Source: Candidatus Latescibacterota bacterium (lineage in GTDB: Bacteria > Latescibacterota > UBA2968 > UBA8231). From it: DNA of 64,000 nt. Positions 20,137-40,503 of the stretch are shown here, one piece after another. The notes beneath the pieces are model-generated. The model did not search any database and had not been told where the DNA came from. It saw only the letters and a list, made by a program, of their open reading frames with translations. Both the position numbers and the translations under genes were made by a program. How positions within the stretch are numbered: the first letter of the stretch is position 1; each line of letters starts with the position of its first letter. The stretch spans positions 4,000,001 through 4,064,000 of the forward strand of contig CBDCDC010000002.1 of assembly GCA_965215195.1 (NCBI GenBank), given 5' to 3'.

Positions 20137-21072
20137 ATGGGGCAGAAGAAGACCAGATTTAAGCTGCTTGCCATAGGCTTAGGCGTGGTTGCTCTCTTGG
20201 TTGGGGGCAAAATGTATGTCGATCATGCCGAACAGTCGGCGTTGGAGCAGCAGCGTCAGGAGCAGGCATTTGTCGAAGAGGTGGGGCGCATGCCCGATCC
20301 GCAGGAGAAGACCGACCTGCACGTTGCAGCGAGACTGAACCTACCCGTGCTGACTAGATCCCTGTTGGCTGGGGGCGCGGATGTCCACGCCAAAGACAGC
20401 AAGGGCCGGACGCCGCTGCACGTAGCGGCGAGTGTTGATACTTCTACGACAGCGGCAGTGTTGCTGGCTGGGGGCGCGGATGTCCACGCCAAAGACCCCA
20501 AGGGCCAGACGCCGCTGCACGTGGCGGCATTGAGGGATGCTTCTGCGACAGCGGCGGTGTTGTTAGCTGAGGGCGCGGATGTCCACGCCAAAGACCCCAA
20601 GGGCCGGACGCCACTGCACGTAGCGGCGAATGTTGATGCTTCTGCGGCGGCGGCGGTGTTGTTAGCTGAGGGCGCGGATGTCCACGCCAAAGACAGCTAT
20701 GGCTTTACCCCGTTGCACGTGGCGGCGGCTTCTGCGAGAGTGGCGGTAGTGCTGACTGAGGGGGCGGATGTCCGCGCCAAAGCCAGCAAGGGCCGGCCGC
20801 GGCCGCGCTTGGCGGCGTTGGGGGATGCTTCTGCGACAGCGGAGTTATTGCTGGCGCGGGGGGCGGATGTCGATGCCAAAACCAACAATGGCGACACGCC
20901 GCTGCATTTGGCGACGTTGCGGGATGCCTCTGCGACGGCGGAGTTATTGCTGGCGCGGGGGGCGGATGTCGATGCCAAAACCAACAATGGCGACACACCG
21001 CTGCATTTGGCGACGTTGGGGAATGCTTCTGCGACGGCCGAGGTGTTGCGCCGTTACGGTGCGCGAGAGTGA
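20137..21072 (+). CDS. Membrane-anchored ankyrin-repeat protein
   Basis: N-terminal TM (LLAIGLGVVALLVGG-KMYVDH); about 7 ankyrin repeats in 99-bp DNA units. Confidence 0.93.
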   Translation: MGQKKTRFKLLAIGLGVVALLVGGKMYVDHAEQSALEQQRQEQAFVEEVGRMPDPQEKTDLHVAARLNLPVLTRSLLAGGADVHAKDSKGRTPLHVAASVDTSTTAAVLLAGGADVHAKDPKGQTPLHVAALRDASATAAVLLAEGADVHAKDPKGRTPLHVAANVDASAAAAVLLAEGADVHAKDSYGFTPLHVAAASARVAVVLTEGADVRAKASKGRPRPRLAALGDASATAELLLARGADVDAKTNNGDTPLHLATLRDASATAELLLARGADVDAKTNNGDTPLHLATLGNASATAEVLRRYGARE

Positions 21073-21091: not shown

Positions 21092-21222
21092 CTTACTACA
21101 CGCCACCAGCCCTCAGCCGGCCAAGGATCGAGGGCATCTTGCCCTCGATCCCGGACCCATCGGAAACAGCAGAAAAGGCGTACTCAAAGTAAGGGCGCCT
21201 ACTTTAGGTGTCGTGTACTAAG
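21092..21222. mobile_element. MITE copy 2
   Basis: CTTACTACACGCC ... GTCGTGTACTAAG ends; 9-bp TSD CTTTTGAAC on both sides; a single GAGGGCATCTTGCCCTC palindrome. Confidence 0.88.
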
Positions 21223-21379: not shown

Positions 21380-23551
21380 ATGAACAACGAACAGCATCGC
21401 TTGGCGCTGCCGCAGGGGACGCGCATCCGGGACTTTGAGTTTCACCGCGTCCTCGGCCACGGCGGGTTTGGCATCACCTATCTGGGATGGAACATGGCCT
21501 TGGATATTCCCGTGGCGATCAAGGAGTATCTGCCGGCCGACTTGGCTACCCGCGAGCAGGACTTGTCGGTCGTGCCGCAGACGACGCAGGCGGCGTCGGA
21601 TTTCCAATGGGGCTTGGAGCGGTTTTTGGACGAAGCGCGTACGCTGGCGCGCTTTCAGCACCCCAACATCGTCCGCGTCCATCACTTCTTTGAAGCGCAC
21701 AGCACGGCGTATATCGCAATGGACTATGTGGAGGGGGAGGACTTGTCGGCGTATTTGACGCGCAAGGGGCCGCTGCGCGAAGACGAGCTAAAGGGTATTC
21801 TGGATCCGCTGTTGAGTGCCTTAGAAGTGGTGCATAGAGCGGACTTTCTGCATCGGGACATCAAGCCGGGCAACATCGTCCTGCGCGATTCGGATGGCTC
21901 GCCGGTGTTGTTGGACTTTGGTGCGGCGCGGCAGGCGATTGGGGCGAAGAGCCGCTCGGTGACGTCGATTGTAACGCCGGGATATGCGCCGATAGAGCAG
22001 TATTCGAGTCGGGGTCGTCAGGGTGCATGGACGGATATTTATGCGTTGGGCGGGGTGTGCTATCGGGCGTTGACGGGTCAGGTGCCGGACGATGCGACGG
22101 ATCGGGTGCGTCATGATCCGCTGGTTCCGGTGTCTGAGCGGTGTGCGGGTCAAGCCAGTCCAGCGTTTCTTGCGGCGATCGATGCGGCGTTGGCAGTGGA
22201 TGAGGAGGATCGTCCGCCGAGTGTGGGGGCATGGCGGGCGATGCTGGCGGCAGATGCGGCGGATGTGCAGGAACGGGCGACGTTGGAGCAACCGCGTCGG
22301 GAGGCACAAGCCGAACAGCAGCGTCGGGAACAGCAGCGCGAGGAGAGGCAGCGGCAGGAGGAACGGGCGCGTGTGGAGCCGGCCGCGCCGCCCTCGGCAC
22401 CGCAGAAGCAGCCCAGCTACAAGCGGCTTGCCGTAGTCTTGGGCGTGGTTATTGCTCTGTTGGTTGGGGGCAAACTGTATGTTGATCACGTCGAACAGGT
22501 CGCGTTGGAGAAGCAGCGTCAGGCCGAACAAGCCGCCGAAGCCGCCCGAGTCGCCGCCGAGCAAGCCGCCAAACAGCGCCAGGCCGAACAAGCCGCCGAA
22601 GCCGCCCGAGTCGCCGCCGAGCAAGCCGCCAAACAGCGTCGGGCCGAGCAAGCCGCCGAAGCGGCCCGAGTCGCCGCCGAGCAAGCCGCCAAACAGCGTC
22701 AGGCCGAGCAAGCCGCCGAAGCGGCCCGAGTCGCCGCCGAGCAAGCCGAAAAACAGCGTCAGGCCGAGCAAGCCGCCGAAGCGGCCCGAGTCGCCGCCGA
22801 GCAGGCGGCGTTGGAAGAAGAGCGCAAGAGTGGCAAGGTGGTTTCGCTTCCGGGGGGTGGGGAGATGGCGTTTGTTTGGATCGCGCCGGGTGTATTTCAG
22901 ATGGGGTCGCCGGCTTCGGAAGAGGGTCAGGAAAATAATGAAGGGCCGGTGCATGAGGTGGAGATTAGCGCGGGGTTTTGGTTGGGTCAATACGAGGTTA
23001 CGCAGGGTCAGTGGGCGTCGGTGATGAGGGCGCGGCCTTGGCTTGGTAAGAAGAACGTTGTAGAGAATTCATCTCATCCGGCGGTGTATATCTCATGGCA
23101 TGATGTGCAGAGATTTATTGGTCGGTTGAATAAGGCGGCGGGGGCTTCGTTGTATCGGTTGCCTTCGGAGGCGGAGTGGGAGTATGCGTGTCGAGCGGGT
23201 ACATCGACTCGTTGGTCGTTTGGGGATGCCGAGAGGCAACTGACGGATTATGCGTGGTATGATGCTAATGCTTGGGATGCTCATGCGGTGGGTCTGAAGC
23301 GTCCTAACCCTTGGGGTTTGTATGACATGCATGGGAATGTGTCGGAGTGGGTTCAGGACAGGTATAGTAAGCGCTATTATAATAGCTCGCCTCGGGTTGA
23401 CCCCCGGGGGCCTTCATCCGGTGCCGATCGCGTCGTCCAGGGCGGCTCCTTCTACAGTTCCGCCCAAGCCGCGCGGTCGGCGTTTCGCTACGGCCTCTCG
23501 CCCGACGCCCGCTACGCCACCGTTGGTGTGCGCCTTCTCAGGATTCGTTAA
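21380..23551 (+). CDS. Receptor-like Ser/Thr kinase - TM - helical stalk - FGE/C-type lectin domain (probable DGR target)
   Basis: LGHGGFGITY, VAIKEY, HRDIKPGN, DFG, TPGYAPIEQ; TM LAVVLGVVIALLVGG; YRLPSEAEWEYACRAG, GLYDMHGNVSEW, GVRLLR. Confidence 0.93.
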   Translation: MNNEQHRLALPQGTRIRDFEFHRVLGHGGFGITYLGWNMALDIPVAIKEYLPADLATREQDLSVVPQTTQAASDFQWGLERFLDEARTLARFQHPNIVRVHHFFEAHSTAYIAMDYVEGEDLSAYLTRKGPLREDELKGILDPLLSALEVVHRADFLHRDIKPGNIVLRDSDGSPVLLDFGAARQAIGAKSRSVTSIVTPGYAPIEQYSSRGRQGAWTDIYALGGVCYRALTGQVPDDATDRVRHDPLVPVSERCAGQASPAFLAAIDAALAVDEEDRPPSVGAWRAMLAADAADVQERATLEQPRREAQAEQQRREQQREERQRQEERARVEPAAPPSAPQKQPSYKRLAVVLGVVIALLVGGKLYVDHVEQVALEKQRQAEQAAEAARVAAEQAAKQRQAEQAAEAARVAAEQAAKQRRAEQAAEAARVAAEQAAKQRQAEQAAEAARVAAEQAEKQRQAEQAAEAARVAAEQAALEEERKSGKVVSLPGGGEMAFVWIAPGVFQMGSPASEEGQENNEGPVHEVEISAGFWLGQYEVTQGQWASVMRARPWLGKKNVVENSSHPAVYISWHDVQRFIGRLNKAAGASLYRLPSEAEWEYACRAGTSTRWSFGDAERQLTDYAWYDANAWDAHAVGLKRPNPWGLYDMHGNVSEWVQDRYSKRYYNSSPRVDPRGPSSGADRVVQGGSFYSSAQAARSAFRYGLSPDARYATVGVRLLRIR
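22514..22810 (+). repeat. Five tandem 60-bp coding repeats (QRQAEQAAEAARVAAEQAAK)
   Basis: Near-identical units starting at 22514, 22574, 22634, 22694 and 22754. Confidence 0.95.
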
Positions 23552-23574
23552 CCCTTTAGCCCTTTTACCCTTGG
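23411..23574 (+). other. DGR variable region 1 plus IMH-like pyrimidine tract
   Basis: 141-nt ungapped match to 41194-41334 with mismatches concentrated at positions 1/2 of NNC/NNT codons; followed by CCCTTTAGCCCTTTTACCCTTGG. Confidence 0.8.
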
Positions 23575-23610
23575 CGGGCCTCACGCGATTCCCGAGCGTT
23601 TCGCCCTAGC

Positions 23611-23675: not shown

Positions 23676-23906
23676 ATGACCGAGCAACCCCTAACACAAG
23701 CCCAAGACCACGACCGGCGTATTGGCCGGTTAGAAGGAATCGCCGAGCAGTTAGACCGCCGCTTGGACAGTATTGAGCGGGCGATTGGGGAACTACGGCA
23801 GGAGATGGCCGCGCTCAATCGCCGCCTCGACGTTCAATTCCGCTGGTTCATCGGCATCCAGTTCGGCGTTGTCGGCCTGCTTATCAGCATCCTGTTAAAG
23901 GGCTAA
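23676..23906 (+). CDS. Small coiled-coil protein with C-terminal TM (MTEQP family, copy A; DUF1640/CCDC90-like)
   Basis: RBS AAGGAG, heptad region, RWFIGIQFGVVGLLISILLKG tail; paralogs at 25951, 26736 and 27478. Confidence 0.8.
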   Translation: MTEQPLTQAQDHDRRIGRLEGIAEQLDRRLDSIERAIGELRQEMAALNRRLDVQFRWFIGIQFGVVGLLISILLKG

Positions 23907-24026: not shown

Positions 24027-25678
24027 CTATCCCGTACGCAGTGTTGCCACCCGATCCAGCTTTTCCACGACTTCCGGGTGGATTTCGTCGGGTCGCATCG
24101 CGGCGGCCAGCAGATACAAGTCCCGCTTAGGCGTGGGTGCGAGTAGCGGCACGAGGAACTCGTCACTGGCCTTGACGCGCACCAGCGAGACGTGATCCCC
24201 AAATAGGTCGGTCCCGCGAGGAACCTGTCGCCAAAACGCCTCTTCCACCGACTTTTCCACCAACGGGAAGTTGGCGAACCGCTTGATCGCCTCGGGCTGC
24301 AACAGATAGTTCTCGATCTCGTAGCGACGCCAGCGCAAGACCACGAGGCCAGCACGGCTGGTCTCCTCGTCCGGTTCGTCGCGGTTGTCGCCATCGAGCA
24401 GGCACAGGGCCGGCAGCCCGGGAAAGGCGGCCTGCATGGCGAAGAAGTGATCTCGGGCTTCGCGCAGACTGCGACCGCCGAGCGGGCGCACAAACGGCCG
24501 CTCAAAGAAGGTCCGCGCCGGATGCTGGAGAATGCGCGCCCACTCACCCAAGATTCGCTCGTCTGTCTCCCCTTCAACGTAGAGCACTGCGCCGACCTCG
24601 CGGCCCAATAGGAGATCAGTGGTGGTCAGACGCTTGAGGGCTTCGCGCAGTTGATTGCGCTGGATTTCGCCGATAAGTGGACGGGGCGATTCACTAAAAA
24701 ATCCGAGCACCCGCGTCGGCTCAGTGGCGTCGAGGACGACCTCGGAATGCGTGGCAATGAGCACTTGACCGCCGCGTTCGCGGGCCACCTTGCGAATCAG
24801 ATCGTACACCTGTCGTTGCAGGATGACGTGCTGATGGGCGTCCGGCTCGTCGAGCAGGATGACGGCCGCCGGGCGGGCGTAGAGGAATGCCAGCAGCAGG
24901 AGTACTTGTAGGGTGCCGCTGCCGGCGTTGGACAAATCGAGGGGCCTATCGCGGTCCGGCTCGCGGTACTCGCAGACGATGTACGGTTGGGCCGGAGCGT
25001 ACGATGGCGCGAGCACTTCGATTTGAAAGAGGGTGCGGATGTGCTCGGCGAGTAGCCGCCAGTTTTCCGGGCTGTTTTCGGAAATTTCCCACAGCAGATT
25101 GCGCAGAATCTCGCCCGGCCGCCCCTGACCCACGAGCAGATCTTGCATCCCTCGGTCGCGCCGCGGCTCGTCTCGCTCAATACCGGCGAGAGGCGGAACG
25201 TGAACGATGTCGAGTTCCCGGGCCGTTAGGGGTGGGAACGCCCGAATGGCTTCCGGATCGAGATTTTTGGCCCCTGCGGACGCGCATGTACCACTTCGGG
25301 ATTGGAGTACTGGAATTCGATTCCGCACGTCCAGTCCTCCTTGCCTTTTGTGCCCTCCACGACGATTTCGATCAGCCGCCGAGTTCCCGACATACCGCGC
25401 GGGCCGGTGACCTTCCGTCCCTCCCACAATAGATTCATCTCGCGCAGCGGCACGGCCGTGAAGTCGGCGCGGGTTATGGCCACGCCGGAGCGCTTGACCG
25501 CCCGGCCCCCCTCGCGCTGGGCGAGCCAGCGGTCGAGCCCGAGCTTCCACGTTGCAATGGCCTGTAGCAGGGTGGACTTCCCGGCATTGTTGGGGCCGGC
25601 GAGCACCACCGACGCGGCCAACTCAAACGTCTGCTCGCGAAAACGCTTGAACTTTCTGATAGTAATGCGCCGGATCAT
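24027..25678 (-). pseudogene. ABC/AAA ATPase with TOPRIM-like C-terminus (OLD-like), frameshifted near 25275
   Basis: Walker A GPNNAGKST in ORF 25678-25226; signature AGSG, Walker B LLDEPDAH, IATHS, YVEGETD and LDGD in a different frame ending at 24027. Confidence 0.8.
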
Positions 25679-25950: not shown

Positions 25951-26175
25951 ATGACCGAGCAACCCCTAACACAAGCCCAAGACCACGACCGGCGTATTGG
26001 TCGCTTAGAAGGCATTGTCGAGCAGTTAGACCGCCGACTGGACAGCATCGAGCGGGCGATTGCCGAACTGCGTAGCGAAGTGCGCGCTTCAGTCCGCTGG
26101 CTCATCGGCATCCAGCTAGCCAGCCTAATCGCTATTGGCAGCCTGTTGTTCAGCATCTTGGGCAAGCTACCCTAA
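25951..26175 (+). CDS. Small coiled-coil/TM protein (MTEQP family, copy B)
   Basis: N-terminal ~40 aa near-identical to copy A; different TM tail. Confidence 0.8.
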   Translation: MTEQPLTQAQDHDRRIGRLEGIVEQLDRRLDSIERAIAELRSEVRASVRWLIGIQLASLIAIGSLLFSILGKLP

Positions 26176-26735: not shown

Positions 26736-26972
26736 ATGACCGAGCAACCCCAACCTCTAACGCAAGCCCAAGACCATGACCGGCGTATTGGCCGGTTGGA
26801 AGGCATTATCGAGCAGTTAGACCGCCGCTTGGACAGCATTGAGCGGGCGATTGGGGAACTACGGCAGGAGATCGCCGTGCTCAATCGCCGCCTCGATGTT
26901 CAATTCCGCTGGCTTATCGGCATCCAGTTCGGCGTTGTCGGCCTGCTTATCAGCATCCTGTTGAAGGGCTAA
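26736..26972 (+). CDS. Small coiled-coil/TM protein (MTEQP family, copy C)
   Basis: Near-identical to copy A with a 2-aa insertion. Confidence 0.8.
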   Translation: MTEQPQPLTQAQDHDRRIGRLEGIIEQLDRRLDSIERAIGELRQEIAVLNRRLDVQFRWLIGIQFGVVGLLISILLKG

Positions 26973-26974
26973 CC

Positions 26975-27110
26975 CTTACTACACGACACCAGCCCTCAGC
27001 CTTCCAAGGATCGAGGGCATCTTGCCCTCGTCGAGGGCGGGACGCCCTCGATCCCGGACACATCGGAAACAGCAGAAAATGCGTACTCAAAGTAAGGGTC
27101 GCGTACTTAG
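26975..27110. mobile_element. MITE copy 3
   Basis: CTTACTACACGAC ... GTCGCGTACTTAG; 9-bp TSD GGGCTAACC; the empty site is visible after paralog A (about 23900-23908). Confidence 0.92.
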
Positions 27111-27422: not shown

Positions 27423-27477
27423 CCCACCACTTTAGTCCCCGGTTGGCCTTTGTGGTGGCCAAGGCAAGGAGCAAGCC

Positions 27478-27647
27478 ATGACCGAGCATCCCCAACCCCT
27501 AACGCAAGCCCAAGACCACGACCGCCACATTGGCCGCTTGAAAGGCATTGTCGAGCAGTTAGACACCGATTGGACGGCATAGAACGCCGCATCGACAGCG
27601 TAGAGCGAGCCATTGCCGATCTCAGCCCCAGCACCGGCAGGACATGA
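27478..27647 (+). pseudogene. MTEQP family copy D, frameshifted and truncated
   Basis: Same leader GCAAGGAGCAAGCCATGACCGAGCA; frameshift after EQLD; no TM tail. Confidence 0.75.
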
Positions 27648-31157: not shown

Positions 31158-31323
31158 TTGTGGGTATGGGGAGCATAGTTTTAATCTCTTCGGGTTGAAT
31201 TTCTCGCCGCTTGCGGCGTAGGCCGTTAAATAGTTCCCGCTAATACCCCGCTGCTTGTAGGGGGGAAGTTTATTTCAGCCTTCTTAGCTGTTGACGGCCA
31301 GTTTGAACGTTCACGGAGAGGCT

Positions 31324-32856
31324 ATGAACCAACAATACCTATCTTTCATCGCGCATTGCGCCGTGGCTTGGTTCCTTTGCACAAGCCCCGTCTTGGCGCA
31401 AATAGATGTGGATGTTGTTTCCGCAAGCATCGTGCGGGTGCGCGCTTATGACGATCACAAAGTCGCGGTTGAAGGGAGCGGGTTCGTCGTCAATGAAAAG
31501 GGCTACGTGTTGACGAATGCCCATCTCCTAGACAAGGCAGAGGGCTTGACCGTTTTGTCCCTGAAGACTGGGGCCGAGGTCGTGGCGCAGCGGGTGTTTG
31601 CCCGTCGCGCCATGAACTTGGCCCTGTTGCACGTACAGGGCTTGAACTTGCCGCCCCTCAGCTTATCCGAGCAAGGAGCCGCTGTCGGCCGGGCCGTGCA
31701 GACGCTGCGGTTCGAGGCTGCGGGAGATGTTCGTCTCTCTCACGGGACGATTGGCACGTACCAAGACATCCGCGGCAAAAAAGCAAGCCGTCCGGTGGCC
31801 CACCTGCTCCAACACAATGCCTTGATAACGGCCAAATCCTTTGGCATGCCCCTGTTCAACGAATGCGGGGACGTCGTCGCCATCAACCTGCCCAATCCGG
31901 GCAGCGGCTCGTGGCCGTTTCGGAAAGTGAAACCGAGAGGAACCATTTTTGCCTTGCGCAGCGGCGACATAATAGCGGCGCTCAAAGACCGAGAAATCGC
32001 CCATACCGTGGTTGAAGCAGAATGCCTGAGTGCGGTTGAGCGCGCTGAACGCGATAGAAAAGCGGCCGCCGATAGCCTCAAGGTGGCTAAAGCAAAAGCC
32101 GACTCGGCAAGCAAAGCCGCAGAAAAGGCCAAGGCCAAAGAGAAGGTCGCTCGGCGGGCGGCAGAACGGGCGAAAGCGCGGGCCGATTCCGCAGAGAAAG
32201 TGACCGCCGATAGCCTGAAGATGGCGAAAGCGCGGGCCGATTCCGCGAGTAAGGCGGCCAAAGCCAAAGCCGACAGCCTCAAAGCAGCAGAAGTGCAGGC
32301 GCAAGCCAAAGCCGACAGCCTCAAAGCGGCCAAAGAAAAGGCCGCGCAGCGATTGCAGTGGGGCCTTGCTGCCGGGGCGGGACTGGTGCTGCTCGCCCTC
32401 CTCGGTTGGTGGCTTTCTTCGCGGCGGAAAAAGGAGCAATTACAGAGCGCTGAGTCCCGAGTGAGTGAAGCCGAACAAACGGCTGAAGCCGCGCGCCAAG
32501 CCGCGGCGAGCGCACCGCAGCCCGCGCCTTTCAGGTGTCTATTGGAAGGCCAAGATAGCACCGGCCGGCCATTCGCCTTGACCCTATCGGCCTTGGCCTT
32601 GGGGGATCGAACCGGTGTGACGCTCGGCAGAAGCCCGGCCAACGCCGAATTTATCATTGACCACGAACAAGTCTCCCGCGAACACGTCCGGCTCGCGTGT
32701 GCTGACGGCCAACTCTACGCAGAGGATTTGAATGCTCTGAATGGGACCAAGGTGAACGGCCGCCTGCTCAACCCCGGCGAACAGGTGCTGTTGCAAAACA
32801 ATGATCGGCTTGAGATCGGGCCGGTCGCTTTTGCCGTGCGTTTGGTGCAGGAGTGA
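31324..32856 (+). CDS. Exported trypsin-like domain (degenerate triad) - coiled coil - TM - FHA protein
   Basis: Signal peptide, GSGF, LTNAH; Asp site reads MNLALL and Ser site AKSFGMP; ADSLK repeats; FHA GRS..VSREH..DLNALNGT. Confidence 0.88.
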   Translation: MNQQYLSFIAHCAVAWFLCTSPVLAQIDVDVVSASIVRVRAYDDHKVAVEGSGFVVNEKGYVLTNAHLLDKAEGLTVLSLKTGAEVVAQRVFARRAMNLALLHVQGLNLPPLSLSEQGAAVGRAVQTLRFEAAGDVRLSHGTIGTYQDIRGKKASRPVAHLLQHNALITAKSFGMPLFNECGDVVAINLPNPGSGSWPFRKVKPRGTIFALRSGDIIAALKDREIAHTVVEAECLSAVERAERDRKAAADSLKVAKAKADSASKAAEKAKAKEKVARRAAERAKARADSAEKVTADSLKMAKARADSASKAAKAKADSLKAAEVQAQAKADSLKAAKEKAAQRLQWGLAAGAGLVLLALLGWWLSSRRKKEQLQSAESRVSEAEQTAEAARQAAASAPQPAPFRCLLEGQDSTGRPFALTLSALALGDRTGVTLGRSPANAEFIIDHEQVSREHVRLACADGQLYAEDLNALNGTKVNGRLLNPGEQVLLQNNDRLEIGPVAFAVRLVQE

Positions 32857-32859
32857 ACA

Positions 32860-34188
32860 TTGCACCGCTTCAGACGCTGGCATCGCGTCTTTTTTCTACT
32901 CGCGCTTCTGCTGCCGGGCCGCGCCGTTGCCGCGCCAGACTTTGACGCGCTTGAGCGGAGCGTGGTACGCATTGTAACCCAGACCAGCCAAGGACCTAAT
33001 GCGGGCACTGGATTCGCCATAAACGACCAAGGCTATATTGCGACCAATGCCCACGTCATCGCCCACGCCCACTCGATCCAAGCCATCCCAACCAACTCCA
33101 ACGCGCTATACGAGGTGGAAGTAATCGCCACGTCCCCAGAATTCGACCTCGCAATCGCCCATATCCCCGACATAACCCTGCCTCCGATTGCGCTGTCGCT
33201 CGCACCGGCCACAAAAGGCCAGAAGGTATGGTCCATAGGCTATCCCGGTGGGGCTGACCGCAACAGACCGGCGCACGATCCGACCGTGCAAGACGGCGTC
33301 ATTGGGCGGATTTTTTCGGGCGCGTGGCACGCGCAAGAACTCAGGATTATTCAGCACAATGCGCCGACCAATCCGGGCAACAGCGGCGGCCCCTTACTAG
33401 ATGATTGTAGCCGGGCCGTCGGCGTCAATACGCAGGCGTCGCTCGTGGTCATTATCAGTCCATCGAGTGGGGTGACGCGGGTGCCCCATGCGGCGGGCAT
33501 TTACTGGTCTTCGCATATCGAGGAGTTGACAACTCTGTTGGACGACCACGGCATTGCTTTTCAATCAGAGAGCGACGATTGTGTAGCGGCTGGCGGCACG
33601 GGAGGTTCTGGCACGGCGGAAAAGGCGCAGCGCGAGGCGGAGAAGGCGCGGCGCGAGGCCGAACAAGCGCGGGTGCAAGCCGAAGAAGCGAGCGATCAAT
33701 TTTTCATCTACCTACTCTTGTTGGGCGGTGTGGCTTTGGTCGCCTTGGTCGTTGCCTTAAAGAAGCCGCGCCAGTTCGCCCAGCAGACCTTGGCGAAGCC
33801 GCGCCAACTCGTCCAACAGATAAGTCGGCGCGTAGGGGTAGGGGCCGTTGCCAAAGGCCCAAGGCACGGCATCGTGCTAGCTGGTTTTGACGGTCGCGGC
33901 CACCGCGTCTGCATTGAGTTGTCGCCGGCCCGATTTGCTGGTCAACGCTTGGGGCTTTCGCTCGGCCGGCATCCCGAGTTGGTCGATGAAGTCGTCGCCG
34001 ATGGAAACGTATCCCGCCGGCATCTGCGCATTGTCGCCCAAGGCAATCGATTGTATGTCGAAGATTTGAACTCCAGCAATGGGACGTTTTTGAACGAGCA
34101 ACGCCTGTCGCCCTTTAAGCCGGCGCGATTGGAATATGGTGCCAAAGTCGCGCTGGGCGATTTGGTGCTCATGGCCTCCAAACTTTAG
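32860..34188 (+). CDS. Exported trypsin-like serine protease - TM - FHA protein
   Basis: GTGF, TNAHV, FDLA, PGNSGGPL intact; TM; FHA GRH..VSRRH..DLNSSNGT. Confidence 0.9.
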   Translation: MHRFRRWHRVFFLLALLLPGRAVAAPDFDALERSVVRIVTQTSQGPNAGTGFAINDQGYIATNAHVIAHAHSIQAIPTNSNALYEVEVIATSPEFDLAIAHIPDITLPPIALSLAPATKGQKVWSIGYPGGADRNRPAHDPTVQDGVIGRIFSGAWHAQELRIIQHNAPTNPGNSGGPLLDDCSRAVGVNTQASLVVIISPSSGVTRVPHAAGIYWSSHIEELTTLLDDHGIAFQSESDDCVAAGGTGGSGTAEKAQREAEKARREAEQARVQAEEASDQFFIYLLLLGGVALVALVVALKKPRQFAQQTLAKPRQLVQQISRRVGVGAVAKGPRHGIVLAGFDGRGHRVCIELSPARFAGQRLGLSLGRHPELVDEVVADGNVSRRHLRIVAQGNRLYVEDLNSSNGTFLNEQRLSPFKPARLEYGAKVALGDLVLMASKL

Positions 34189-34200
34189 AAGGTATCGGGC

Positions 34201-35154
34201 ATGAAGAAACGCAGCCGCGAGCTCAACATCTTTAGTATGTCTGCGCTTGATCTGTTCGCATCGGCTCTCGGTGCTTTCATACTCATTACCATGGTGCTGC
34301 TGCCCTTTTTCCCGAATCTGAACTTGTCGGGACAGGAAAAGGCCGAGTTGGCGCAGGCGCAGGCCGAGTTGGCGAAGTCGAAGGCCGAGTTGGCGCAAGC
34401 GGAGGCCGAGTTGGAGCGAGAGAAAGCCAAGCTAAGACAGGAAAAAGCCAAACTAGAGCGGGCCAAGGCCAAAGTTCCGAAAACAGAAAATCCGCTTGCA
34501 AAACGAGTGGAGGCTTTGCAACAGGAGCTGAAGCAGGCAAAGGCCGAAGCGGCGAAAGCAAAAGGTCAGCTTGCAAAACGGGTGGAGGCTTTGCAACAGG
34601 AGATAGATGACACAACCGTTTTATTGGGCATTAAGACGAAGGCGAGAAAGTTCGCGTTCGTCATAGATATGTCGGGCAGTATTTATCAGCCTGGAAAGCA
34701 AGATTATCGCCAGTTCATATTATTGGCCATACAAGACATGCTTGCTGCTTTTAAGGCGGAAATAGAGGTCTGTCTCATTGGTTTTCAAGGCTCGAATCGG
34801 CTGCACTATTGGCCTCAAAATAGAGGGTACTTTCAAGTAAAAAGGAATACGCGAGATCGCGTCGTAGGACAGGTAAACGACTGGATGAGATTAGTGGATG
34901 GCGACACGCCCACACGCGCTGCGTTGCTGGCGGCGATTGCACTGCACCCCGAAGAAATCGTCCTGTTGAGCGATGGGGCCCCCTCTGAAGATTGGCGCAT
35001 GGTCGTGCAGGCTGTAACGGCTGAAAATAGGCGGAAAATACCCATACACGCCGTAGCCGTTGGCAATTACGTGACAGACCGGAAATTTATTGATTTTCTA
35101 GTGCAGCTAACCGAACAAAACAACGGCTATCTCATAGGTGCTAAGCCGGGTTGA
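34201..35154 (+). CDS. Membrane-anchored coiled-coil vWA-domain protein
   Basis: ExbD/MotB-like TM with Asp (SMSALDLFASALGAFI), coiled coil, MIDAS DMSGS, TP, LLSDGAP. Confidence 0.85.
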   Translation: MKKRSRELNIFSMSALDLFASALGAFILITMVLLPFFPNLNLSGQEKAELAQAQAELAKSKAELAQAEAELEREKAKLRQEKAKLERAKAKVPKTENPLAKRVEALQQELKQAKAEAAKAKGQLAKRVEALQQEIDDTTVLLGIKTKARKFAFVIDMSGSIYQPGKQDYRQFILLAIQDMLAAFKAEIEVCLIGFQGSNRLHYWPQNRGYFQVKRNTRDRVVGQVNDWMRLVDGDTPTRAALLAAIALHPEEIVLLSDGAPSEDWRMVVQAVTAENRRKIPIHAVAVGNYVTDRKFIDFLVQLTEQNNGYLIGAKPG

Positions 35155-35155
35155 C

Positions 35156-35539
35156 ATGAACAAATCGAGGTTTTCAGTGTATCGAATTGGGCGCAGTCCC
35201 GGCGTAGATATTCAAATTGACGATGATTCGGTCTCTCGCGTCCACGCCGAGTTGATTGCGACGCCAAGCGGCTCGTACTACCTCACGGATTGCGCCAGCA
35301 GCGGGGGTACTTATGTTGCGCGAAATGGTGAGTGGAGACGCATCCGGCAAGAATTTATCAGCCCGACCGACGCGATTTTACTCGGGCATTATCAGACGAC
35401 CGCATCCGCACTCATCGCGCTGGCCGCGCAAGAGGAGCGCCATTTAGGAGGCGGCAAACCTACGCGGCAGGACAGCTTGCCCGTAGGTCCAGTGCGGCGC
35501 AACGTAGATACAGGTGAGATCATTAGCGAGGAGGATTGA
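35156..35539 (+). CDS. FHA-domain protein
   Basis: IGRSPGVDIQIDDDSVSRVHAEL..LTDCASSGGT. Confidence 0.88.
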   Translation: MNKSRFSVYRIGRSPGVDIQIDDDSVSRVHAELIATPSGSYYLTDCASSGGTYVARNGEWRRIRQEFISPTDAILLGHYQTTASALIALAAQEERHLGGGKPTRQDSLPVGPVRRNVDTGEIISEED

Positions 35540-35540
35540 C

Positions 35541-36326
35541 ATGGCAAACGGGCAAGGGATAGAGCTGGAGCAACGTCTAAAAGCAAGCGTCATCAGCCTG
35601 TTAGGAGGCGTCATATCCATCGCGATTATGAGCCTTATTTTTGATCACCCCGATTCTGCGGTCGGTGCTTTTCTGTTGGATCGCCACACCGAGAATTTCC
35701 CGTATCCGTTTACAATCCAAAACGTCATGTGGCTGATGTTTTGGGTCGGCTGCGGTGAACTCTGGGTGCGGTTTAACCAAGCCCAGCTCGAAATGGAGCA
35801 GGTGGCGAAACGCTATCTGCCGGAAGACGATGAAGTTATGTTGCGGGCGCGGGATTTGGGTTCTTTTTATCAAAAGGTGCGGCCCATGGCCGAGGAGCGC
35901 CCCTTCTATTTACAGCGTCTGATCATGCGCTGTATTCTACAGTTTCAGGGGAGCCACTCCGTCAATCAAGCCAACTCGCTATTGAATTCATCCCTCGAAT
36001 TATTCCAGCACGAGCTCGAACTCAAATACGCGATGTTGCGCTATCTCGTGTGGCTGATCCCAACGCTGGGTTTTATTGGCACGGTGGTGGGTATTGCGTT
36101 TGCGTTGGATTATGCCGCCAACATTGAAGATCCACAGGACCCGACCTTGCTGGCGGAAATCACCGGTCGGCTGGGCGTCGCGTTTTACACGACTTTGCTG
36201 GCGTTGGTCCAGTCGGCCCTGCTGGTGTTTGCGCTGCACATTGCACAAAGCCGCGAAGAGATGGCCTTGAACCAATCCGGCCAGTACTGTTTGGACAACT
36301 TAATCAACCGGCTTTATGAGAAGTAA
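35541..36326 (+). CDS. MotA/TolQ/ExbB proton-channel family protein
   Basis: WLIPTLGFIGTVVGI, LGVAFYTTLLAL. Confidence 0.88.
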   Translation: MANGQGIELEQRLKASVISLLGGVISIAIMSLIFDHPDSAVGAFLLDRHTENFPYPFTIQNVMWLMFWVGCGELWVRFNQAQLEMEQVAKRYLPEDDEVMLRARDLGSFYQKVRPMAEERPFYLQRLIMRCILQFQGSHSVNQANSLLNSSLELFQHELELKYAMLRYLVWLIPTLGFIGTVVGIAFALDYAANIEDPQDPTLLAEITGRLGVAFYTTLLALVQSALLVFALHIAQSREEMALNQSGQYCLDNLINRLYEK

Positions 36327-36379
36327 GTTGCAGGTGTGACGCCTGCGCGGCCGGAACAACCTAAAGATAGGAGGGCACC

Positions 36380-37021
36380 ATGCCTGTTTATCGCGGACCC
36401 GATGGCAAAGTCATTGAAGAGAAGACCGATAAGCGGAGCGAGGATACCAAACCACCGGGCGTGGCCAACAGGCCGTTGCCGCCGGCACCACAGGACGGCG
36501 AGCAACCCGCCGGTGGTGGGCGTTTAGAGGCACCCACCCAGCGAATGGGCGAAAGTGTCGGCGAGGAGGAGCGGACGCGCTTGGTGGGTGGGTGGCCGCG
36601 GCAAGAAGACAAGGAACGCCGGCAAGAGCGTACCGCAGAGGACCGCGGCATGGACGATCCGGTTGTGGGGTGGTTGGTGGTTGTGGAGGGGCCGGGAAAG
36701 GGGCGGGCCGTGCAATTGGGTTATGGTTCCAATTCGCTTGGACGCGGGGCAACCAACCGCGTCAAACTCGATTTCGGCGACGATCAGATTTCGCGCAATG
36801 GTCATGCGGTTGTCACGTATGATCCGCGGTCGCGGGGCCGAAAGTTTTACGTACAGCACGGCGGCGGCACCAACCTGACGTATCTCGGAGATCAGCCCGT
36901 GCTCGCGCCGGCTGAGTTGCCGGCCCTGAGTCACATCTGTATCGGCCATACGGTTCTCCGGTTCGTGCCCCTGTGCGGTGCTGAGTTTGAATGGCAGGAT
37001 ACAGAAGCAAGCGAGGCGTGA
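36380..37021 (+). CDS. FHA-domain protein with disordered Thr-containing N-terminus
   Basis: PVVGWLVVVEGPGKG, LGRG, ISRNGHA, GTNLTY, RFVPLCG. Confidence 0.85.
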   Translation: MPVYRGPDGKVIEEKTDKRSEDTKPPGVANRPLPPAPQDGEQPAGGGRLEAPTQRMGESVGEEERTRLVGGWPRQEDKERRQERTAEDRGMDDPVVGWLVVVEGPGKGRAVQLGYGSNSLGRGATNRVKLDFGDDQISRNGHAVVTYDPRSRGRKFYVQHGGGTNLTYLGDQPVLAPAELPALSHICIGHTVLRFVPLCGAEFEWQDTEASEA

Positions 37022-38130
37022 TGAACGAATTAGACGGGTGCTTTGCCGCGCGGCAAATTCCCGGCCAACGGGAGTATCAAGAGGATGATTACGGCCTGCT
37101 CGATGGGCGCGACCTCGGCATAGATGGTAGCGAGCACACCATGTTGTTGGTCGCCGATGGCATGGGCGGCCACGTGGGCGGCGCGACGGCTAGTGGCCTG
37201 TTGAGCAAGACCGTTGTCGAGGCGTATCCGCAGGCGTCTGGCCCCATCGTCGATCGGCTGCGGGAGTGTCTCGAAGCGGCCAATGAAGCCATCGCCGCTG
37301 CCATTGCCGAAAATCCCGCACTCGCCAGCATGGGTTCGACCTTGGTTGCGGCGGTTGTTTCGAGCGAAGGGCTGAACTGGATCAGCGTGGGCGACTCGCC
37401 ATTGTGGTTGTTCCGCGAGGGTCAATTGGAGCGGTTGAATGCCGACCACTCGATGGCACCAGTTCTGGCGGATCTGGTGGCCACCGGGCGCATGACCGCA
37501 GAGGAAGCGGCTCAGGATCCAAGTCGGCATTCGCTGCGCTCGGCGGTCATGGGCGATGCCATCCATCTGATTGACGTGTCGTCGCAGCCGGTTGCTGTGC
37601 AGAAGGGCGACCGGGTACTCTTGGCGAGCGATGGTTTGATGACCCTCAGCGATCAAGCGATCGCAGCTATCCTCAAAGAAACGCAAGACGCGCCCTTGGA
37701 GGATAGCGCGGCGGCCCTTATCCAAGCCGTAGAAGCGGCCGAACATCCTCATCAGGACAATACGACCGTTTTGTTGTACGCGCCGGCTGCGGCTGCTCTT
37801 GGCGGGGGGGAAGCTGTTCAGGGTAAGCCGCGATTAAAACGAAAACCTTGGGGCAGACTGTTGGGAATGTTGCTATGCGTTGCTGTCTTATGGGGGGTGC
37901 TTTATTGGCTTAGGCAGGGTGAAGATGTGGCTGTTGAGATGACGCCGGCAACTGTTGAGACGCCAGCGACAACGGATGTTGAACCCATTGAAGGCTCTGA
38001 TGTTCAAGTGCCAATGGCATCCGACGCCGAAGAGGGCGTACCGGCCTCTCAGGAGAAGGCGACAGGGGACAGCGCCCGTGCGGGGGTAGGCAACGAGCCG
38101 CAAGAAGAGCGTGTGGGCGGTGAGCGGTGA
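37021..38130 (+). CDS. PP2C-family Ser/Thr phosphatase with TM
   Basis: REYQED, VADGMGGH, MGST, VGDS, DHS, LASDGL, DNTT; TM near C-terminus. Confidence 0.93.
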   Translation: MNELDGCFAARQIPGQREYQEDDYGLLDGRDLGIDGSEHTMLLVADGMGGHVGGATASGLLSKTVVEAYPQASGPIVDRLRECLEAANEAIAAAIAENPALASMGSTLVAAVVSSEGLNWISVGDSPLWLFREGQLERLNADHSMAPVLADLVATGRMTAEEAAQDPSRHSLRSAVMGDAIHLIDVSSQPVAVQKGDRVLLASDGLMTLSDQAIAAILKETQDAPLEDSAAALIQAVEAAEHPHQDNTTVLLYAPAAAALGGGEAVQGKPRLKRKPWGRLLGMLLCVAVLWGVLYWLRQGEDVAVEMTPATVETPATTDVEPIEGSDVQVPMASDAEEGVPASQEKATGDSARAGVGNEPQEERVGGER

Positions 38131-38262
38131 GCGGTGAGCGTGGATGCAGACACAGATACGGCCCTGAGAGCGTCTGCCTTAGAGTAAAGAGGCGTAAGTG
38201 GGGAACAACATTGCTTGGGAGGGAGAATTTCCCAAGGCCATACTAAACACAGGAGGAGAGGA

Positions 38263-38760
38263 ATGAATTTCTCATATAAGCGGCTTGCCGTAGCCTTGAG
38301 CGTGGTTGTTGCGGTCTTGGTTGGAGGCAAAATGTATGTTGATCATGTTGATCATGTCGAACAGGTGGCGTTGGAGAAGGAGGTACAGGTATTTGCTGCA
38401 AAGGTGGGGCGTTCGCCACGTCCGGATGGGGTGATCACTAGCACTAGGAGATCTCGCATCGAAGAAGCACAGGTGTCCGACCTGCATGTAGCAGCGCACC
38501 TGAACCTACCCGTGCTGACTATGTCCCTAATCAAGGGGGGGGCGGATGTCCATGCCAGAATCAGGCGGTCGGTGGATAACTTTGAAAGAGGGATGACGCC
38601 GCTGCACGCGGCGGTTCGAGAGGATGCTTCTGAGGTAGCGGCGGTGTTGCTTGAGCACGGGGCCGATGTCAACGCCAAAGACAGCTATGGCCATACGCCG
38701 CTACGCTATGCGAGTGTGAGCGTAGCCAAGGTTTTGCGTCGTTACGGTGGCCGAAGGTGA
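38263..38760 (+). CDS. Membrane-anchored ankyrin-repeat protein
   Basis: TM module SYKRLAVALSVVVAVLVGGKMYVDH; DLHVAAHLNLPVLT cap; GMTPLH repeats. Confidence 0.88.
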   Translation: MNFSYKRLAVALSVVVAVLVGGKMYVDHVDHVEQVALEKEVQVFAAKVGRSPRPDGVITSTRRSRIEEAQVSDLHVAAHLNLPVLTMSLIKGGADVHARIRRSVDNFERGMTPLHAAVREDASEVAAVLLEHGADVNAKDSYGHTPLRYASVSVAKVLRRYGGRR

Positions 38761-38793
38761 AATAAGCTGATTTTTGCAACAATTGGAGACGCT

Positions 38794-40455
38794 ATGAGCG
38801 AAGAGCAACAACCTCTCAACGCCTTGCCCCAAGGCCATCGGCTGCAAGAATACGAACTGGTGCGCGTGTTGGGCTTTGGCGGCTTTGGCATGACGTATCT
38901 GGGCTTTGACCACCACTTGGACAAAGCCGTCGCGATCAAGGAATACCTGCCATCGGACATTGCCACCCGCACGGCCGACCACAGCGTCGCCCCGCAAACC
39001 AGCGGCTTTGGCGGCGATTTCGAGTGGGGCTTGGAGCGGTTCTTGGACGAAGCGCGCACGTTGGCGCGATTTGACCATCTCCACATCGTTAAAGTCTATC
39101 GTTTCTTTGAAGCGCACGGTACGGCCTATATCGTGATGGAGTATGTCGAAGGGGAGACCTTGTCGGCGTATCTTGAGCGCAAAGGGACGCTGAGCGAAGC
39201 CGAACTCAAAGCGCTTCTATATCCGCTTCTGGACGGTTTGGAGGTGGTGCATAAAGCGGACTTTTTGCATCGGGACATCAAGCCGGGCAACATCGTCCTT
39301 CGAGACGCAGACCATTCGCCGGTGTTGCTGGACTTTGGGGCGGCGCGTCAGGCGATCGGGGCGAAGAGCCGCTCGGTTACGTCTATCGTGACACCGGGGT
39401 ATGCGCCGATTGAGCAGTATTCGAGTCGGGGGCATCAGGGAGCGTGGACGGACCTTTATGCGTTGGGGGGCGTGTGCTATCGGGCGTTGACTGGGGACGT
39501 ACCGGACGATGCGATGGATCGGGTGCGAAATGATCCGTTGGTTCCGGTGGCAAAGCGGTGTGCGGATCGGGCGAGTGGTGCATTTTTGTCAGCGATTGAT
39601 GCGGCATTGGCAGTGGATGAGGGGGATCGTCCGCAGAGTATTGGGGCTTGGCGGGCGGCGATGGAGGCGGATGCGGTCTCGCAGGACGAGCGGCACCCTT
39701 CGTTGGTAAAGCGGTATGCGGTTCGGGTAAGCCAAACGTTTCTTTCGGTGATTGATAAGACATTGACGCAAGGAAGGCAGGGCGCGAGCAGCGAGACCGC
39801 TGATGCGCCGCTAACTACTCAGTCAGCAGCCAAAGTTAAAGAGGCGAAGCGTTTGAACGGGTGGTTTAAGCTCCACTATATTTGCCTTGCTGCCATCATA
39901 CCGGTATTGACGGCACTATTTGTTGGCATTGCGGTGGTATTAGTCTCTTCAGAAGGCGAGCGTGTCCGCAAAGACCTGAGCCGTTTTTTAGAGTCGCAGA
40001 CGCTAGAGCCATATCTGAGTAGCGTATTCGGACTATTTAGCATCATAGTCGCGATTGTTGCGGCCGTATTCGGGTTGATTGCTTTTGTATCCGGGTTGCG
40101 TATCCTACATAAATTGTGGTCCCTCATCTCCGCTCACAAAGCAAAGACGACACCAAGCGAAGCCGTTGGATTTTTCTTTATACCGCTGTTCGGTTTCTAC
40201 TGGAACTTTATTGCAATTTACGGTCTCGCCAAAGCCCTCAATAGCGAAATCGGTCGAAAATCAGTCAGTGAGGCGGCCAGTTTTATCTATTGTTGCTCAT
40301 TTTTGCTTGGCCCTCTATGGGTGATAATGGGATGGCGAGAGGATCAGATTTGGATGCTCCTTATTGGATATATTGTTATGGTTGTGCTCTGGTTCGTCAT
40401 TCTGAGGCAAATGCAGAACGCTGGTATGTTCATTTTGCAATCGGATAAGGTGTAG
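38794..40455 (+). CDS. Ser/Thr kinase with multi-TM C-terminal domain
   Basis: Kinase domain closely paralogous to 21380; C-terminal lower-GC part with about 5 TM helices (AVGFFFIPLFGFYW). Confidence 0.92.
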   Translation: MSEEQQPLNALPQGHRLQEYELVRVLGFGGFGMTYLGFDHHLDKAVAIKEYLPSDIATRTADHSVAPQTSGFGGDFEWGLERFLDEARTLARFDHLHIVKVYRFFEAHGTAYIVMEYVEGETLSAYLERKGTLSEAELKALLYPLLDGLEVVHKADFLHRDIKPGNIVLRDADHSPVLLDFGAARQAIGAKSRSVTSIVTPGYAPIEQYSSRGHQGAWTDLYALGGVCYRALTGDVPDDAMDRVRNDPLVPVAKRCADRASGAFLSAIDAALAVDEGDRPQSIGAWRAAMEADAVSQDERHPSLVKRYAVRVSQTFLSVIDKTLTQGRQGASSETADAPLTTQSAAKVKEAKRLNGWFKLHYICLAAIIPVLTALFVGIAVVLVSSEGERVRKDLSRFLESQTLEPYLSSVFGLFSIIVAIVAAVFGLIAFVSGLRILHKLWSLISAHKAKTTPSEAVGFFFIPLFGFYWNFIAIYGLAKALNSEIGRKSVSEAASFIYCCSFLLGPLWVIMGWREDQIWMLLIGYIVMVVLWFVILRQMQNAGMFILQSDKV

Positions 40456-40503
40456 TTACTAACTTTCTCGTTTTTTCTCTTTTTTTATAAGGAGCAATGA
40501 GCT

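Follow-up and report, generated by a model that had tools for sequence, protein, structure and literature searches.

The sequence analyzed here is a 64,000-nucleotide stretch of a Candidatus Latescibacterota bacterium genome (assembly GCA_965215195.1, contig CBDCDC010000002.1, positions 4,000,001 to 4,064,000 of the forward strand), which is called the window at its full length, and the gene under study lies on its forward strand at 21380..23551. According to the list of open reading frames (ORFs) and Pfam, the gene product of 723 amino acids consists of an N-terminal kinase domain, a predicted transmembrane (TM) segment, a repeat stalk and a C-terminal domain of the formylglycine-generating enzyme (FGE) and C-type lectin (CLec) type, and the 3' end of the gene has the appearance of a variable region (VR) of a diversity-generating retroelement (DGR) target. 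The same order of kinase, TM segment, five 60-bp repeats and an FGE/CLec domain ending in a VR had been described in a first-pass annotation made from the letters of the window, and it was confirmed by Pfam, hydropathy and Tandem Repeats Finder. Genomes, contigs, loci and proteins are denoted below by our own handles beginning with G, C, L and P, and the source genome is G000.

The Hanks-type Ser/Thr kinase domain was located at residues 19-238 (21434..22093, + strand), where the Pfam Pkinase model matched with an E value of 9.6e-36, and the kinase motifs GHGGFG (glycine loop), VAIKE (VAIK lysine), HRDIKPGN, DFG and APIE (APE-like) were present. With these catalytic motifs and a single predicted TM segment before the sensor domain, the product appears to fit the receptor form of Hanks Ser/Thr kinases. 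It resembles the receptor kinases PknB and PknD in the arrangement of cytoplasmic kinase, single TM segment and extracytoplasmic sensor, but it differs from them in carrying neither a PASTA nor a beta-propeller sensor. No PASTA domain was found by Pfam, and the NCBIfam model NF033483 (PknB_PASTA_kin) gave 149.8 bits, far below its cut-off of 450 bits, a match which stemmed largely from the kinase and the linker. The kinase family was expanded, with 15 matches at E<=1e-60 in the source genome. Single matches running over the full length from kinase to FGE domain were, among the matches listed for the 31 genomes of the genus, the two copies of the source genome only. Tandem arrays of 4-5 paralogous kinases were also observed in congeners, for example at G018:C1:279961-285570 and G022:C1:5060558-5075429.

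A single hydrophobic segment, predicted to be transmembrane, was identified at residues 350-368 (22427..22483, + strand) by Kyte-Doolittle hydropathy and as a member of the DNA repeat family D13, so a segment of the kind called for by the first-pass annotation does lie between the kinase and CLec domains. The mean hydropathy over its 19 residues was 2.42, and only 19-residue frames starting at positions 345-353 exceeded 1.6. Further copies of the D13 DNA were found at 20155-20239 and 38275-38359, both in genes of TM-ankyrin proteins, where the homologous segment forms the N-terminal anchor; in the product of 20137-21072 it follows a short N-terminus with four Lys or Arg residues. Because a homologous segment anchors an ankyrin protein after a K/R-rich start, the kinase is plausibly oriented with its N-terminus inside and its C-terminus outside, and the TM call itself was based on hydropathy, charge and homology. 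Paralogs of the same VR family start with hydrophobic export-type segments. Taken together, these segments and the TM-ankyrin homologs made it plausible that the TM segment places the lectin domain outside the cytoplasm, as the first-pass annotation had claimed.

It was also considered whether the hydrophobic segment spans no membrane, which would make the protein a sensor kinase lying entirely in the cytoplasm, as most cyanobacterial kinase-CLec variable proteins do. Most DGR variable proteins of cyanobacteria are predicted to be cytosolic (PMC7517822). Among the 20 kinase-FGE proteins examined, two (P0057 and P0059) were without a hydrophobic segment, as was a GTPase-ankyrin-FGE paralog in the source genome, so the same lectin module would therefore work in the cytoplasm as well; in addition, the confidence of the full-length AlphaFold model fell below 50 at residues 333-373. 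Against a cytoplasmic protein stood the high hydropathy mean, the retention of the segment in the other 18 of the 20 homologs (scores of 2.12-2.84), its use as an N-terminal anchor of ankyrin proteins and the export-type openings of the VR-family paralogs. A purely cytoplasmic kinase was thus judged very unlikely.

Behind the TM segment, five in-frame 60-bp tandem repeats encode 20-aa units rich in Ala, Gln, Glu and Arg (residues 379-478; 22514..22813, + strand; DNA repeat family D3). They were reported by Tandem Repeats Finder at 22514-22803 with a period of 60, 4.8 copies, 96% matches and a score of 524. The full-length AlphaFold model was poor, with a mean predicted local distance difference test (pLDDT) value of 57.5, and was used for the stalk helix only. 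In this model the region formed one uninterrupted helix over residues 370-484 (115 residues; nt 22487-22831), with a pLDDT of about 73-82 for the block. The AlphaFold check suggested in the first-pass annotation gave a continuous stalk helix and low confidence at residues 333-373. An α-helix rises by 1.5 Å per residue, and at this value the modeled stalk would be about 17 nm long, with about 3 nm for each repeat unit.

The number of 20-aa units was not constant among homologs. Five units were counted here and in the kinase-FGE paralog of the source genome, six in the closest ortholog P0006, and one full unit with a partial one (about 1.5) in P0041, while the spacer between the TM segment and the FGE domain ranged from 27 to 217 residues in the 16 kinase-FGE proteins with both landmarks found. 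In Latescibacterota chromosomes, the loci L011, L012, L014, L015 and L017 encode the same kinase-TM chassis followed by runs of repeats with a period of about 10 aa and then by ankyrin repeats which replace the FGE domain, and L019 has four repeats ahead of an FGE domain. Because unit counts and spacers differ among close homologs and relatives, the length of the stalk is, as far as these comparisons indicate, evolutionarily labile by gain and loss of repeat units, and differs between close relatives. The variation in repeat number anticipated in the first-pass annotation therefore held between close homologs. Contigs of the Logan collection were a different case, for the repeat region was broken there into short unitigs, and paralogs and other species were mixed in at 85% likeness. 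Unitig joints over the repeats skipped 276, 217, 108, 87 and 48 nt; these joints were set aside as a sign of repeat-number polymorphism, since the skips are not multiples of 60 and their origin is mixed.

The FGE-sulfatase (C-type-lectin-fold) domain occupies residues 497-721 (22868..23542, + strand) and was recognized by Pfam, a domain model and Foldseek. The Pfam FGE-sulfatase match reached an E value of 1.9e-47, and the domain folded alone with 66 homologs gave a pLDDT of 92.9. The best Foldseek match was TvpA of Treponema denticola (PDB 2y3c; E 3.9e-20, TM-score 0.86, root-mean-square deviation 2.3 Å), and the best PDB sequence match was TvpA too (E 6.1e-29). A single Cys was present in the domain (residue 604), with none in residues 669-723 or the VR. 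The catalytic cysteines of FGE, C336 and C341 as named in PDB titles, presumably map to the C-terminal part of the domain, and such a pair was not found in that part of the domain here. With one Cys and none in the last 55 residues, the FGE-type domain is therefore a putative binding module rather than an enzyme. TvpA shares with it the FGE-type C-type-lectin fold and the C-terminal variable region, and it has no FGE activity and its variable residues are exposed (PMC5758913). The two differ in that TvpA is a stand-alone protein with reverse transcriptase (RT) and template repeat (TR) in its genome, whereas the present domain is predicted to sit outermost on a membrane kinase, and neither RT nor TR was found.

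The core VR, which aligns with the TRs of two related genomes (G132 and G085), was delimited at 23417..23536 on the + strand. Comparison of repeats and copies revealed a longer DNA scaffold at 23380..23575 (+ strand), which includes the stop codon at 23549-23551 and is common to four other loci of the source genome, so that the VR family there comprises the gene at 21380-23551 and these four. The scaffold was conserved at synonymous sites and for about 25 nt beyond the stop codon, while the gene bodies upstream of it were only about 75-79% identical among the copies. Over 150 aligned columns of the five VR copies, 92 were invariant, and only 2 of these were A. With the heterologous TRs as references, 26 of 28 adenine columns of the G132 TR varied among the five copies compared with 28 of 92 non-adenine columns (Fisher p 4e-9), and with the G085 TR the counts were 31 of 35 and 23 of 85. 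At the variable residues, which stand between invariant residues of the scaffold, 13-17 different amino acids were counted across 66 homologs. A scan for the VR scaffold pattern over 168 genomes of the phylum detected it in 16, with AAC-rich, template-like versions at three places (G132, G085 and G021). At the 3' end of the VR, where an IMH and a downstream hairpin or cruciform are features of DGR targets, the conserved flank ran to about 23575, and no hairpin common to all five copies emerged when their downstream DNA was folded. Because the variation coincides with TR adenines and the scaffold DNA is conserved past the stop codon, the 3' end of the gene is, on this evidence, a DGR-type variable region, which bears out the DGR origin given to it in the first-pass annotation.

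Ordinary divergence of paralogs, under diversifying selection on the lectin binding site, could in principle have produced such a 3' end with no DGR involved. This would agree with the failure to find a TR or DGR-clade RT in the genome and with the fact that 16 of 60 variable columns before the stop codon are third-codon positions. Selection on a binding site is nevertheless at odds with variation that falls where actual TRs of related genomes have adenines (p about 1e-9), with the near absence of A from the invariant columns, with DNA identity reaching synonymous sites and continuing past the stop codon, and with the presence of a TR fragment in a congener. A non-DGR origin was accordingly regarded as extremely unlikely.

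The template and the enzyme were then sought in the assembly, which comprises 6.13 Mb in two contigs with 95.2% completeness and 8.5% contamination. In the window no TR was found, the only other copy of the repeat being a second VR at 41158-41343, and no TR was detected in the 6.13-Mb assembly by blastn, nhmmer, a scan of invariant columns or heterologous TR queries. Likewise, no RT of the DGR clade was found in the assembly, where RVT_1 matched two proteins only, one being an RT-Toprim of the retron Ec67 type and the other a group II intron RT that also has maturase and HNH domains. The Avd family (PF05635) had no match in the source genome, and tblastn of the G132 DGR RT against the source genome returned only a 27% match, to the group II intron RT. 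Three apparent templates were rejected: a 16-nt exact TR match at C1:941046 falls within a coding frame of no relation and was put down to chance; the copy at C1:551873 was not enriched in adenine and belongs to a gene interrupted by an insertion sequence, of which it forms the 3' piece; and the tandem pair of G018 at 3823274 and 3824375, tried as TR and VR, both end FGE frames with only part of the sites AAC. As a separate observation, the retron-type protein (L002, G000:C2:297318-300941; 567 aa; NF038237 713 bits, PADLOC RT-Toprim_I-C 742 bits) is a candidate anti-phage retron far from the window.

The search was extended to relatives. The G132 DGR-RT query matched none of the 31 genus genomes (the source and 30 congeners, many of them single-contig), and over all 76 genomes of the family it matched G132 itself and two further sequences only, at 33-36%. 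RVT_1 occurred in 15 of the 31 genus genomes at 17 loci, 11 of which aligned to the G132 RT at 23-29% identity. G132, which belongs to a sister genus of the same family, carries an intact compact cassette: an RT of 303-310 aa with IGNLTSQ, a TR right after the RT stop codon, and then an exported FGE target with a VR. In G085 the TR is kept together with a 28-aa RT remnant. In the congener G021 (L118, about 690-790; C1:5509610-5509710), about 55 nt of AAC-rich TR lie directly downstream of a 552-aa group II intron ORF with RT, maturase and HNH parts, with no DGR RT nearby, and this TR fragment may be what is left of a DGR cassette that was destroyed. Scanning for the TR motif gave no match in viral contigs and six loci in metagenome contigs, which included L192 with a TR of the same family and three with unrelated DGRs, none of them linked to the source genome. 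These results suggested that DGR RT and TR have been lost from the source lineage.

Conservation of the VR among orthologs was examined next to its surroundings. The closest ortholog in the protein database, P0006 (739 aa), comes from another assembly and shared with the product of 21380-23551 294 of 300 kinase residues (98%) and all 83 of the C-terminal 83 residues, including 55 of 55 VR residues. Its FGE N-half differed more, with 131 of 168 residues identical (78%) and a 5-aa indel (window 22820-23300); a half of low identity between a near-identical kinase and C-terminus points either to conversion by a paralogous gene or to rapid evolution of this part. In the more distant homolog P0041, 274 of 300 kinase residues were identical and 21 of 55 VR residues differed, and diversification therefore took place after that split, if P0041 is orthologous. 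The orthologous VRs of two congeneric species pairs were as conserved as their flanks (VR 98-99%): the locus of G022 and G021 was 95.1% identical over about 3.1 kb with 159 of 162 VR positions shared, and that of G003 and G006 was 97.8% identical with 185 of 186. Logan contigs, which come from one study and drop rare variants, matched the VR with 0 differences in run X1 (sample S1) over 22774-23597 and in X4 (sample S3) over 23392-23552. At the 85 columns which are non-adenine in both templates, each VR copy had 3-9 private changes, 6 of them in 21380-23551, a pattern to be expected when homing has ceased and only mutation of the ordinary kind goes on.

From these observations the VR of 21380-23551 looks orphaned and frozen, and seems to drift like ordinary DNA. 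The first-pass annotation had called the ectodomain hypermutable, a description at variance with an assembly in which neither TR nor DGR RT was found, with a VR identical in P0006 and in the contigs of two samples, and with orthologous VRs as conserved as their flanks. Its comparison with an antibody was likewise overstated, a fixed and once-diversified putative binding site being the better description. When relatives were compared, as that annotation had advised, the repeat number did vary and the VR was invariant between the closest orthologs.

A DGR that is still active could escape notice if its RT-TR cassette lay outside the assembled chromosome pieces, on a plasmid, a phage or an unbinned contig, and rewrote the five VRs in trans at least episodically. 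Targets remote from the RT are known (PMC7517822), the assembly is 95.2% complete, and the five VRs share genome-specific non-adenine scaffold states unlike those of the congener G018, from which it follows that the last homing post-dates the divergence of the gene bodies. Continued rewriting is opposed by the lack of a match to the G132 RT in any of the 31 genus genomes, many of them in one contig, and by the low identity to it (23-29%) of the 11 genus RT loci that align at all. It also accords poorly with VRs identical in P0006 and in two samples, with orthologous VRs 98-99% identical between congeneric species, with the private non-adenine changes in every VR and with the absence of the TR motif from viral contigs. 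An active DGR was therefore held to be unlikely. A particular form of it, in which an RT-TR cassette on a mobile element (plasmid or phage) is shared in a host-associated community and episodically rewrites the orphan VRs of the whole genus in trans, was considered decidedly unlikely; if true, it would mean community-supplied hypermutation of chromosomal sensors, this receptor kinase included.

We consider it probable that the gene encodes a single-pass, receptor-like Hanks kinase whose repeat stalk carries a lectin tip that was once written by a DGR, and that the DGR has since been lost, the VR being fixed and the stalk remaining labile in length. In the mechanism proposed, the kinase would be cytoplasmic, and the five-unit helical stalk would hold the non-enzymatic FGE-type lectin domain outside the cytoplasmic membrane, which in this phylum probably means the periplasm or the cell envelope. 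A past DGR would have written the binding surface of 21380-23551 and of four other genes, namely a kinase-stalk-FGE paralog, an exported FGE protein, a secreted PD40-repeat protein and a GTPase-ankyrin-FGE gene broken by an insertion sequence. RT and TR would then have been lost from the lineage, and each VR would therefore be a fixed, paralog-specific binding site drifting like ordinary DNA, while the stalk would go on evolving by gain and loss of repeat units. By analogy with other receptor kinases, ligand binding at the lectin tip may change kinase activity, and the kinase may feed a phospho-signaling network with FHA and PP2C proteins of the kind encoded at 31291-38130.

Several points weigh against this reading. 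The completeness of 95.2% and contamination of 8.5% leave room for an RT-TR cassette of small size carried by a plasmid or phage outside the bins, and the shared scaffold states that set the five VRs apart from G018 point to comparatively late homing. P0006 may be a very close strain, in which case the VR identity may span a short time, and minority VR variants would be invisible in the Logan contigs. For the topology, the proteins of the family without a TM segment and the low model confidence around residues 333-373 count in the same direction. No FHA or PP2C gene adjoins 21380-23551.

The type of protein is already known, as a kinase-CLec DGR target, and is here found in a Latescibacterota genome. 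That such targets are on record, as the first-pass annotation stated, was borne out by PMC7517822, PMC5758913 and PMC10907252. According to Wu et al., FGE-type CLec proteins make up the largest target category, and one composition, category b12, includes a kinase (PMC5758913). Vallota-Eastman et al. reported that cyanobacterial variable proteins carry kinases more often than any other grafted domain, most being cytosolic and some having a TM segment or signal peptide (PMC7517822). The proteins of these two papers share with the present one an N-terminal Hanks kinase and a C-terminal FGE/CLec domain with a VR, often with several remote paralogous targets per genome; they have a cognate DGR and are mostly predicted to be cytosolic, whereas here a TM segment and a helical stalk of tandem repeats are predicted and a DGR was not found. 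Doré et al. described TM targets with periplasmic CLec domains and the decay of DGR parts by transposons in Thiohalocapsa PB-PSB1 (PMC10907252). Those targets are alike in having CLec sensor domains set in the periplasm by a TM segment and in the degradation of redundant DGR parts by transposons, but they belong for the most part to STAND NTPase or MoxR-associated conflict systems whose DGRs are active, and are not single-pass stalked kinases. A literature search joining DGR or kinase/ankyrin/formylglycine with Latescibacter found no publication covering both.

What this case adds is that the VR seems orphaned and fixed throughout a genus, together with the stalk of repeats and the exchange of ankyrin repeats and FGE domain. 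It would show what remains after the loss of a DGR: paralogous sensors, among them a membrane kinase, an exported FGE protein, secreted proteins and a GTPase, with binding sites randomized once and then fixed. Such a fixed set of VRs would be closer to a receptor repertoire encoded in the germline than to an adaptive one, and it calls for caution in surveys that name a CLec gene hypermutable whenever its end looks like a VR. The comparison further suggests that Latescibacterota have a modular receptor-kinase chassis, consisting of kinase, TM segment and repeat stalk with either ankyrin repeats or an FGE domain at the outer end and a quickly changing stalk length, which could be used in the laboratory to ask how the reach of a sensor affects signaling.

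The four other VR-bearing loci differ in architecture. A second kinase-TM-five-repeat-FGE paralog with a VR, 75% identical, lies at C2:2887425-2889689. The second VR of the window (about 41158-41343) ends a stand-alone FGE/CLec paralog with an N-terminal hydrophobic export-type segment (40504..41334, + strand), directly upstream of which a paralogous Hanks kinase is encoded (38794..40455, + strand) that lacks a repeat stalk and ends in a multi-hydrophobic tail, the two being a split form of the pair. Another VR copy ends a 1597-aa secreted PD40-repeat protein. The fifth is the 3' piece of the dynamin-like GTPase-ankyrin-FGE gene split by an insertion sequence (L111, G000:C1:550373-553563, upstream to C1:548180), in which a 938-aa frame of dynamin-like GTPase, ankyrin repeats, short repeat stalk and FGE domain is cut just before the VR by an insertion of about 0.9 kb with a 303-aa transposase-like frame on the opposite strand, behind which lies the orphaned VR piece.

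Just upstream of the kinase gene, a TM-anchored ankyrin-repeat protein is encoded at 20137..21072 (+ strand) that shares the TM module and keeps a remnant of the stalk motif, and an ankyrin module like its own is fused to the kinase in place of the FGE domain in relatives. Farther downstream, a phospho-signaling cluster occupies 31291-41334 (+ strand) and includes two trypsin-like protease-FHA genes, VWA, MotA/ExbB-like, FHA, PP2C and TM-ankyrin genes, the Hanks kinase with the multi-hydrophobic tail and the FGE gene with the second VR.

Small repeated elements were also observed around the gene. A 68-nt intergenic repeat (D19), 90% identical between its copies, occurs at 21128-21195, just upstream of the kinase gene, and at 27031-27098, 5.9 kb downstream; a similar string precedes a VR-like fragment at G000:C2:2911748, and the repeat may be a small dispersed element. 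A protein of about 75 aa with a coiled N-terminal part and a hydrophobic C-terminus is encoded in three copies (23676-23906, 25951-26175 and 26736-26972), of which the first had no Pfam match. Each copy is preceded by a repeated element of about 106 nt, with a fourth copy of the element at 27459-27564 (families D4 and D8). On the opposite strand downstream of the kinase gene, 24027-25550 encodes a 507-aa ATPase with AAA_21/AAA_15 (AbiEii/OLD-like) domains, possibly a defense-type ATPase.

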